Source: Nitrospirota bacterium
Lineage (GTDB): Bacteria > Nitrospirota > Thermodesulfovibrionia > Thermodesulfovibrionales > Dissulfurispiraceae
Reading direction: 5' to 3'
DNA: 64,000 nucleotides
Assembly: GCA_040758355.1 (NCBI GenBank)
Contig: JBFLWF010000007.1
Location: 38,573-102,572 of the forward strand
Positions 15,001-18,000 of the stretch are shown piece by piece. The number at the start of each line of letters is the position of its first letter. The first letter of the stretch is position 1. The position numbers are program-made.

Positions 15001-18000
15001 TCATCTACGCATTAACTTTTAAATAGGAGGCATTTACGAGAACTATAGAGATCGAACTGGACGAAGAAAGGGAATATCCTTTTCTTCACGGCGGAATAGA
15101 CAAGACCCTGAAGGTTATAGAAAATTCCCTCAGGGTTGCTATCAGTGTCAGGGGCAATAAACTCCTCATTCAAGGGGATGACGGAAACGTTGACAGGGCG
15201 GAGAAGGTAATCCAGGAAATACGGGAGGTAAATAAAAACGGATACATTCTAAAGCCCGAAGATATAAGCTATGCCATTAAATCCCTGTCAGAGGGCAAAG
15301 AGGTCTCTGTAAGGGATCTTTTTAAGGGCAATATCCCTGTTTCTTCAAAGAAGAGATTTATAATCCCGAAGACAGAAACACAGAGGCAATATATAGACTC
15401 GATAAACGAGTACGATATAATCTTCGGCATCGGACCTGCCGGCACCGGCAAGACGTACCTTGCAATGGCAATGGCCATCAATGCCTTTCTCACAAAACAG
15501 GTATCGAGGATCGTCCTTGTAAGACCCGCTGTCGAGGCAGGCGAGAAATTAGGTTTCCTGCCGGGCGATATAGCGGAAAAGGTCAGCCCTTATCTCAGGC
15601 CGCTGTATGATGCCCTCTTTGACATGATGGAGATAGACAAGGCATCAAAGCTGATAGAACGGGGCATTATCGAGATAGCACCCCTTGCATTTATGAGGGG
15701 AAGGACATTAAACGATTCCTTTGTGATCCTTGACGAGGCACAGAACACAACGTCGGAACAGATGAAGATGTACCTGACAAGGCTCGGCTTCGGCTCAAAG
15801 ACGGTAATCACAGGCGATATAACACAGATAGACCTTCCAGCCGGCAGGATGTCAGGGCTTGTCGAGGCATTAAAGATACTCAAAGACGTGGAAGATATAA
15901 AGATAGTATACTTTTCCGAAAGAGATGTTGTCAGACACAGGCTCGTCCAGGAGATTGTAAGGGCATACGAAAGGTATGAAAAACGGGACCCAGAAGAGCA
16001 GCAGTAAGGGCCTCCAGAAAGCCTTTGAAGCAAAGGATATCTGGAGCAGGCTCAAGGAATACATGGGAAGGCATAGGGACGATATATACAAGATTATTGT
16101 CCTGATAGCCCTCGGTCTTATCGCTGCCCTGATAATTCAGGAAAAGATAGGTATCGATCGCTTTGCCGGCAGCTTCCTTATAGCAGCAGTAATCCTGTTC
16201 ATCTTCTATAAAGACATAAGGCGTTATAAGCCAGGTTACCTGAGGGATTACAAGATGCTGCTCCTTTTAGGCCTCCTTGTGACAGGCACGCTCCTGCTTG
16301 GAAGGGTATATGAATACTTGCTGTCAGGACTTCACAGGGGGCTTGCCTTTCCCGATGGCAACGCCTTTATCTACGGCATACCTATCCCCATAGGAGCCAT
16401 GCTCGTAAAACTTATATTTGACTTTCACACATCCATAATATTTTCATTTGCCATAAGCCTTTTGGCAGGAATATGGCTCAACGATCCTCTCTATACGGTT
16501 TATGTTTTTATCGGAAGTTTAACCGCCGCATTCGGGGTGGCGAGGTGCAAAAGGCGCTCGGCCCTTATAAAAGGCGGCATGTATGTAAGTGTTGTAAATG
16601 TTGTTACTGCCGGCATCATCCTGCTCCTCAACGGGAACCTTATCTCCCAGATGTCGCCTTCTGCTTTCCTGTTTGCTGCCCTGTCCGGAATTATGGTCTC
16701 TGCAACGGTCTCCATAATATTGCCTGTTATCGAATATATTTTCGGAATAACAACCGATATAAGCCTTGTGGAGCTGCTCGACCTCGATCAGCCGTTAATG
16801 CGCAATCTTATGATAACTGCTCCAGGAACATATCACCACAGCGTTATTGTCGGAAACCTTGCCGAGGCAGCGGCAGAGGCCGTGGATGCCAATCCCCTCC
16901 TTGCGAGGGTAACGGCCTATTATCACGACATCGGCAAGATAAAGATGCCCGAGTATTTTGTGGAAAACCAGACGAGTACAGCAAGCAAGCATGAGAAGTT
17001 AACGCCCCATATGAGCAGCATGATACTTACTTCCCATGTTAAAGAGGGCGTTGAACTGGCTAAACAGTATAAATTGCCGAGGTTGATTACAGACATCATA
17101 CAGCAGCATCACGGCACAAGTCTCATAACATATTTTTATCAGAAGGCTATAGAGCAGGCCGCAGACGTATCCCATGAGAATTATCGTTATCCCGGACCCA
17201 AACCGCAGACAAGGGTAGCAGCCCTTGTCATGATGGCCGATGCAGTCGAGGCAGCTTCCCGTGCGCTTACAGACCCCACACCTGCAAGGATTTCAGCCCT
17301 TGTGGACAGGATAATAAACAATATCTTCCTTGACGGGCAGATAGATGAGTGCGAGCTTACCTTGAAGGATATCTCGGAAATCAAGAAGCGATTTACCTAT
17401 ATCCTGACCAGCATCTTCCACAGGAGGATAGAATATCCCGAGCTTGATATAAAGGGCCTGCGCAATCCCGAAAAAACAACCTTTGAAGCCGGCATCCACA
17501 AAAACCCTGCAGAAAGGGGTTCTTTTGTGATGTCATTATTACAGAACAATGGAAATAACAATAAGGAACAACCAAAGACTGATAAGGATAAACCAGCGCC
17601 GTATAGAGAGCATCCTGAAAAAAGTCCTGAAACATCTAACCCTTAATCACCGCAGATACAGCTTTATCGAGTCTGCCGAGATAAGCGTGCTCTTTGTAAA
17701 TGACAGGAAGATGAGGGAACTGAATCTGCAGTATCGCGGGAAAGATAAAACTACCGATGTCCTGTCGTTCCCACAAATTGAACAGTTCAAACAGTTTAAA
17801 CGGTTTGAACTGTTAACTTCTCTCGGCGATATTGTTATTAACCTTTCCCAGGCAAAAAGGCAGGCGAAGGAACACGGGCTGACCTTTTATAATGAGATCG
17901 CATGGCTTCTAATTCATGGAACCCTCCACCTGCTCGGATATGACCATGAGAAGAATAAATACCAGGCAAGGAAGATGAGGGAGATGGAAAAAGAATTACT

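Follow-up and report, generated by a model that had tools for sequence, protein, structure and literature searches.

Conserved near-cognate start codons in translation-linked genes of the Thermodesulfovibrionales, with a probable ACG start in phoH/ybeZ

Comparison of gene starts within the order Thermodesulfovibrionales argues strongly that translation of a small set of genes begins at near-cognate codons: ACG in phoH/ybeZ, CUG in rplJ and mostly AUH codons in rsfS, thrS, hflX, a YacP/Rae1-like gene (rae1) and infC. The survey's finding of conserved near-cognate starts in translation-linked genes stands and more genes can be added to it, whereas the control at the level of initiation that it proposed can only be inferred. 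A possible reading, which we put forward tentatively, is a start-codon regulon in this order, in which IF3, retuned by an order-wide deletion of four linker residues, would read ribosome status and set the output of ybeZ, hflX, rsfS, rae1, thrS, rplJ and infC via graded near-cognate codons including a native ACG.

The phoH/ybeZ locus

The window is a stretch of 64,000 nucleotides of contig C7 (JBFLWF010000007.1, forward-strand positions 38,573 to 102,572) of a Nitrospirota bacterium. Around phoH it holds the following features:

14936..15008, plus strand: long imperfect hairpin in the spacer before phoH (z -3.66)
15024..15026, plus strand: in-frame TAG four codons upstream of the ACG, overlapping the Shine-Dalgarno sequence (SD)
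15025..15030, plus strand: SD AGGAGG, 5 nt before the ACG (positions -10 to -6 are G-rich across 89 ACG loci)
15035, plus strand: U at -1 of the ACG, which could pair with A37 of the initiator tRNA, the A after the anticodon (T in 82% of the 89 ACG loci, compared with 35% at the ATG starts of this genome)
15036..15038, plus strand: ACG, predicted start codon
15036..16007, plus strand: phoH/ybeZ coding sequence from the ACG, 323 aa (open frame; Pfam PhoH domain spanning residues 109-312; alignment with most relatives begins at residue 1)
15432..15455, plus strand: Walker A motif, residues 133-140
15976-17646, plus strand: HD-domain gene between phoH and ybeY
17549..18046, plus strand: ybeY, two genes downstream of phoH (scores over its cut-off)

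The ACG at C7:53608 (window 15036), 5 nt behind AGGAGG, reads as the survey had described it. Since the in-frame TAG lies inside the SD, a start at an upstream ATG, GTG or TTG is impossible at this locus. The first ATG of the frame, at 15465, is residue 144 and lies 143 codons downstream of the ACG; the Walker A motif precedes it, so that the 180-aa gene call lacks the P-loop. Read from the ACG, the product has a PhoH domain with its Walker A motif (PF02562, 323 bits) and scores below the cut-offs of the NCBIfam PhoH and PhoH2 equivalogs. The HD-domain gene and ybeY downstream make it YbeZ-type by context. YbeZ is a binding partner of YbeY with a possible part in 16S maturation (PMC5101352).

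Conservation of the ACG had been reported for 14 of 15 genomes and is borne out in a larger sample. After removal of 15 duplicates from 110 fetched loci (30 + 80), 95 distinct relatives were left, and ACG stands at or beside the aligned first codon in 90 of them. The other script picks were ATA (2), CTG (1), GTG (1) and none (1); on inspection by eye, one of the two ATA picks (L014) proved to be an ATG lying two codons further upstream. One family, which we take to be Thermodesulfovibrio, uses ATA in phoH. In the larger of the two sets codon 1 is ACG in 76 of 80 loci, while the Thr codon 3 is ACC in 30, ACA in 17, ACT in 16 and ACG in 11 of the same loci. Thus, it is the codon that is conserved and not the residue. 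Among the 93 picks that are non-canonical, the SD is at -5 kcal/mol or below in 89, and 66 lack any in-frame ATG, GTG or TTG back to the previous stop. One relative (G017; L007/L208) lacks both the SD and the ACG and has instead a GTG that no SD precedes, which may be due to a deletion or an assembly fault.

The hairpin in the spacer is built of short repeat-like units, and similar short repeats lie between thrS and infC. A 27-codon frame (14943-15026) runs through the hairpin region and stops at the TAG within the SD; it is absent from the relatives' loci compared. Scanning window positions 14700-15100 for promoters and terminators returned none, and no conserved structure was evident at the phoH start across the loci compared.

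Near-cognate starts in other genes

In a coding-potential scan made without regard to gene function, phoH came 2nd, rplJ 3rd, rsfS 5th, hflX 6th, infC 9th, a YacP/Rae1-like NYN gene 10th and thrS 20th. The addition of hflX, the YacP/Rae1-like gene and infC to the translation-linked genes with predicted near-cognate starts is well supported by sequence and strengthens the theme. Of the products, Rae1 is a nuclease that associates with ribosomes, and RsfS silences them. The starts of rplJ, rsfS, thrS, hflX, infC and rae1 were compared in 31 genomes of the order, with numbers of loci that vary by gene. Two of these genes lie in the window:

51754..53478, plus strand: thrS, short form, from ATT (C7:90326), with GGAGG at 51742-51746
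53558..54061, plus strand: infC (IF3) from ATA, with GGAGGTGA at 53546-53553

For rplJ, the CTG at C42:13178 (minus strand) is in place, and CUG is found at 24 of 29 loci of the order, where the one ACG picked by the script is counted as the CTG that lies one codon upstream of it. The other five loci have ATG (4) or TTG (1) at the same aligned position. As far as the upstream stop, 14 of the 24 non-canonical loci are free of canonical codons, and all 24 have an SD of -5 kcal/mol or below. The sequence GGAAAGGAGG before rplJ, which the survey took to be invariant, is common but differs in L038, L055, L036, L042, L044 and L057. For the L10 leader in which it placed the start, no Rfam gathering score is reached: RF00557 has no match upstream of rplJ in this genome and attains 31.9 bits against a cut-off of 44 (E 0.13), with the core helix visible, in one of ten loci. 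A Rfam search at seven loci gave nothing over the cut-off. The rplL gene of this genome starts at ATG with a strong SD.

The ATA of rsfS at C1:217745 was likewise found as claimed, and 26 of 30 order loci have a non-canonical start (ATA 18, ATC 4, TTA 3, GTC 1), the rest being TTG (2), ATG (1) and one unassigned. In 19 of the 26 no canonical codon occurs back to the upstream stop, and the SD is at -5 kcal/mol or below in all of them. TTA, which is two changes away from AUG, stands at the aligned start after an SD in L069, L071 and L076 (G029, G030 and G023), from three families. The thrS gene does have ATT at C7:90326, but the proposed tie between such a start and the short form without the N-terminal domain does not hold, since 19 of 27 AUH loci encode long forms. 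Judged by the strongest SD, 28 of 30 loci start at ATT, ATC or ATA, or 27 once L130, a mis-pick for an upstream ATG, is discounted; in this genome a TTG lies five codons downstream of the ATT. The N-terminal domain of ThrS has been lost in nine of the 30 loci, in several families, and eight of these nine keep an AUH start.

An AUH codon is found at 29 of 30 order loci of hflX (C55:3209 here; ATA 17, ATC 11, ATT 1, with TTG in the last). In 25 of the 29 non-canonical loci the frame upstream contains no canonical codon as far as the stop, and all 29 have an SD of -5 kcal/mol or below. The YacP/Rae1-like gene (C53:10898, ATT here) has a near-cognate codon at 20 of 26 loci (ATT 16, ATC 3, ATA 1), ATG (3) or TTG (2) at the same aligned position in five, and one locus unassigned; canonical codons are absent as far as the upstream stop in 16 of the 20, and 19 of the 20 have an SD of -5 kcal/mol or below. 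For infC, AUH codons make up 28 of 30 loci (ATA 24, ATC 3, ATT 1, others 2), and the stretch back to the upstream stop is free of canonical codons in 21 of 29. In one family outside the order (L439, L441; G091, G083) the aligned infC start is ACG, and an ATG lies three codons upstream of it.

Near-cognate starts limited to part of the order were also seen in trpB (C6:12676, minus strand, ATT here) and in an M48 peptidase gene (C53:8031, CTG here), so that the gene set is not purely translational. By eye, trpB has ATH at the aligned start in 11 of 16 loci and a canonical codon in five, and in this genome an ATG lies ten codons up; the seven loci of the peptidase gene have CTG (4), TTG (1) or ATG (2). 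Weak or single-genome candidates are a VTT protein gene at C16:35622 (four of five loci ATT-like, the fifth ATG), plsC at C2:60867 (ATT 2, TTG 1), a TPR peptidase gene at C2:123111 (not conserved), a metallo-beta-lactamase-fold gene at C23:23746 (matched in none of five genomes), C6:43450 and C27:3398.

Outside the order, where starts were judged by eye, the AUH start of hflX recurs across the phylum, with an SD before ATH in 13 of 15 cases; rsfS has a near-cognate codon in about six of ten, and phoH an ACG at or beside the aligned position in 6 of 36 loci, from two families, the rest being mostly GTG or ATG. Ten rplJ genes have GTG (4), TTG (3), ATG (2) or CTG (1), and thrS looks canonical in most genomes; the CUG of rplJ and the AUH of thrS are largely confined to the order or class. 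In E. coli, ybeZ and hflX both start at TTG. Weak starts are thus an old trait of these genes, and in this order more of them have come to lie beyond ATG, GTG and TTG.

Frequency and context of the near-cognate starts

For 26 of the 2,618 complete modelled genes of this genome, no ATG, GTG or TTG lies close to where coding is modelled to begin. Five of the 26, namely phoH, rplJ, rsfS, hflX and infC, have a perfect SD run of at least 6, and most of the remaining ones look like frame breaks or signal peptides. Such a single-genome scan is blind to genes with an ATG within about 20 codons, for example thrS and rae1; a stricter version gave 23 candidates compared with 7-31 for control sets and hence serves as a list to test only. 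A pairwise comparison with one relative (G024) covered 1.98 of 2.29 Mb (86%) and 828 orthologue pairs with alignable N-termini. Strict shared near-cognate calls were obtained for 12 of the 828, while four control codon sets gave 2, 4, 6 and 8. The top four were rplJ, hflX, phoH and rsfS; eight of the 12 score in the range of the control sets, and seven of these eight have an SD-less upstream ATG here. By our estimate, near-cognate starts are probably used in about 9-12 of some 2,600 genes, and seven of these genes are linked to translation. Related genomes do not count as independent cases, and a well-conserved gene is more readily validated, a bias towards genes of translation.

A lineage-wide loosening of start selection was rejected: with 26 of 2,618 genes flagged and 12 of 828 shared against 2-8 for the controls, near-cognate starts are rare and start selection is not generally loose. 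Reassignment of the codons to Met was rejected as well. Met stands opposite 0.8% of internal ACG, 5% of CTG and 3% of ATA codons, compared with 63% of ATG codons, and internal ACG, CTG and ATH codons align to Thr, Leu and Ile; they are read normally, so there is no recoding. Canonical codons open the other ribosomal protein genes listed for contigs C37, C42 and C7. Also dismissed as odd starts were rplE and rplO, where an ATG follows two or three codons further on, dnaA, which has an in-frame ATG at its start here, cheR and GARS-like fragments, and prfB, where a frame break lies at C9:20873 (minus strand) that is presumably the expected programmed frameshift. Start-less frames at C6:82828, C13:16313 and C33:22757 minus, cheR-like and two others, look frameshifted.

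The near-cognate genes have a median SD of -8.5 to -14.4 kcal/mol, compared with -6.75 kcal/mol genome-wide; these energies assume the standard anti-SD, and no 16S 3' end was found in this genome or in the part of G024 examined. The T before the start codon listed above for phoH is also present at 77% of 22 rplJ CTG loci, and the remaining spacer positions of both genes vary. AUH genes have no U(-1) preference; infC, rsfS and rae1 mostly have C at -1. In E. coli, a U at -1 pairs with A37 of the initiator tRNA and raises initiation (PMC10018350). The initiator tRNA of this genome (C6:69603-69679, minus strand) has the three G-C pairs and A37. It appears to start with an A1-C72 mismatch, and the corresponding mismatch in E. 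coli is C1-A72.

According to the script, some AUG reversions (three in phoH, one each in rsfS, rae1 and trpB) are SD-less and lie 6-8 nt after a -10-like box. For phoH, the box occurs in 3 of 18 AUG cases, which is not above the background of 198 in 815 SD-less genes of this genome, so that a link to leaderless initiation is weak. Leaderless genes seem to be common here: 198 of 2,606 called starts are SD-less and lie 5-8 nt after a -10-like box, compared with 21 of 1,791 SD-led starts. Leaderless mRNA, too, is counteracted by IF3 (PMC4611024).

IF3 and the possible role of the weak starts

The initiation factor itself differs in this order in its linker:

53753..53803, plus strand: IF3 interdomain linker, 17 residues between the flanking motifs compared with the usual 21

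Measured against three solved IF3s, the protein is four linker residues short. A linker of 17 was found in 31 of 31 members of the order (30 by pattern, one by eye) and one of 21 in 22 of 23 genomes outside it. Among 150 distant representatives, 135 of which were measurable, the linker was 21 in 122 and 17 in three; four further rows of 16 look like pattern slips. The families outside the order with AUH in hflX, a near-cognate codon in rsfS or ACG in phoH have a normal linker. The linker has been reported to matter for IF3 function (PMC9723500).

In the mechanism that we propose, the ordinary initiator tRNA (fMet) would initiate at the near-cognate codons, and a strong SD at normal spacing, plus the U(-1):A37 pair for ACG and CUG, would keep the weak codon in the P site. 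Most such complexes would be rejected by IF3, giving low output when IF3 is plentiful and the 30S mature, and output would go up when IF3 per 30S drops or immature 30S subunits initiate. The purpose may be IF3/30S sensing, that is, an extension of the infC feedback loop to ybeZ, hflX, rsfS, rae1, thrS and rplJ; we regard the chances of this as evenly balanced. A strong SD with a weak codon on genes for ribosome maturation, splitting and silencing and for IF3 is the expected look of a sensor for IF3 per 30S. IF3 accepts AUG, GUG and UUG and rejects the rest, which leads to the infC feedback loop (PMC5499595), and in E. coli immature 30S subunits, as well as loss of RbfA, KsgA or LepA, increase non-AUG initiation, which extra IF3 suppresses (PMC6868393). 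Against sensing, an AUA mRNA competed as well as AUG in one in vitro study, where IF3 hardly repressed it (PMC5499595), and rsfS, hflX and infC of the order start most often at AUA; moreover, neither trpB nor the M48 peptidase has an evident role at the ribosome. ACG yields Met-started GFP in E. coli at 0.1-1% of AUG and near-cognate codons reach 1-2% (10.1101/063800), an output with which the abundance of L10 is hard to explain unless this lineage differs. We speculate that the short linker loosens the filter enough for abundant L10 and ThrS to be made from these codons.

A weak codon could be conserved for fixed low or stoichiometric expression (L10 versus L12) just as for sensing, and control is therefore inferred. 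The starts may be real and simply fix the level gene by gene, with splitting, silencing and cutting factors kept low, L10 below L12 and no shared sensing. Each gene holding its own codon (ACG, CUG or AUH) would fit this, as would trpB and the M48 peptidase, the GTG or TTG of rplJ in 7 of 10 genomes outside the order beside the ATG and strong SD of rplL here, the TTG of E. coli ybeZ and hflX, weak yet accepted by IF3, and the AUU of S. aureus cvfC1, whose output reaches about 10% and on which the medium has no effect (PMC13009471). A weak SD would be a simpler way down, however, and what is found is a strong SD with a weak codon, the design of infC, with the best-supported cases clustering on ribosome-handling genes, so that we consider fixed levels unlikely, though well worth keeping in mind. 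A shortened IF3 that proofreads poorly, so that near-cognate codons are nearly as good as AUG and have drifted in with no regulatory role, would account for the order-wide short linker and for the restriction of the rplJ CUG and thrS AUH, given the reported importance of the linker. Such drift is improbable in view of the rarity of near-cognate starts genome-wide, of phoH almost never going back to AUG, of the starts that hflX, rsfS and phoH share with families of normal linker, and of an initiator tRNA that retains its three G-C pairs.

That translation starts at canonical codons nearby, overlapping the SD or downstream, with the odd codons being just conserved residues, is very improbable. 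ATG, GTG or TTG does occur within five codons upstream in 16 of the 93 phoH loci, and in this genome the TTG of thrS and the ATG of trpB are at hand, but canonical codons are absent, both upstream and over the first 15 codons downstream, from 59 of the 93 phoH and 25 of 29 hflX loci. PhoH from its ATG would lack Walker A, and a conserved Thr would leave the third base free. We find it hardly credible that the mRNA is edited (ACG to AUG, CUG to UUG) or the upstream TAG read through: a single C-to-U change would turn ACG or CUG into a canonical start, and in this genome an upstream ATG opens an in-frame stretch that stops at the TAG, but the AUH genes would be left unexplained by editing and the upstream frame is not kept in relatives. 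C-to-U editing of this kind is a matter of plant organelles, and we know of none in bacterial mRNA.

The starts described here have known counterparts. The autoregulation of infC from AUU, AUC or AUA (PMC5472188, PMC5499595) likewise places a near-cognate codon behind a strong SD, and the infC of this order does so too; here six more ribosome-linked genes share the design, two with ACG or CUG, and their control by IF3 is putative. In Streptomyces, the GTC start of sigR is repressed by IF3 (PMC5472188), which is start-codon control outside infC but concerns a single stress regulator. Deinococcus deserti has several conserved near-cognate starts in one lineage, in dnaA (ATC), rpsL (CTG), Deide_03051 (CTG) and infC (ATA), one of them a ribosomal protein gene. 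The genes differ from those described here, and the starts there were partly shown by proteomics whereas ours are predicted from sequence comparison (PMC2830850); 'ACG' does not occur in the text of that paper. In S. aureus, ccpN (AUA), cvfC1 (AUU), citZ (AUA) and infC (AUA) also have a strong SD backing a weak codon, with an output of about 10% of AUG and, for ccpN, up to 30% in rich medium; that set consists of metabolic and virulence genes, and its main text does not mention ybeZ, phoH, hflX or rsfS (PMC13009471). E. coli has weak starts in the same two genes, ybeZ and hflX, but TTG passes IF3 as canonical and ACG and AUH do not.

Known near-cognate starts amount to a few per genome in the sources at hand, and the central U of the start codon has been called universally conserved in bacteria (PMC4611024). 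Listings and abstract openings contained no description of the starts reported here in this lineage or of a native bacterial ACG start, though start-site tables in supplements could hold cases; a Synechocystis Ribo-seq preprint does not mention hflX. Conserved near-cognate starts are known from infC, Deinococcus, S. aureus and Streptomyces; the ACG start and the grouping of genes appear to be new and would surprise a specialist.

Gene callers restricted to ATG, GTG and TTG shorten PhoH, L10, RsfS, HflX and ThrS across the order. The natural linker variant of IF3 offers a handle on how the linker sets fidelity. With a conserved native ACG and a group of genes of infC design, it becomes testable whether non-AUG starts merely dampen expression or sense. 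If the proposed regulon is true, IF3 would be widened from a self-regulator to a sensor for ribosome upkeep.
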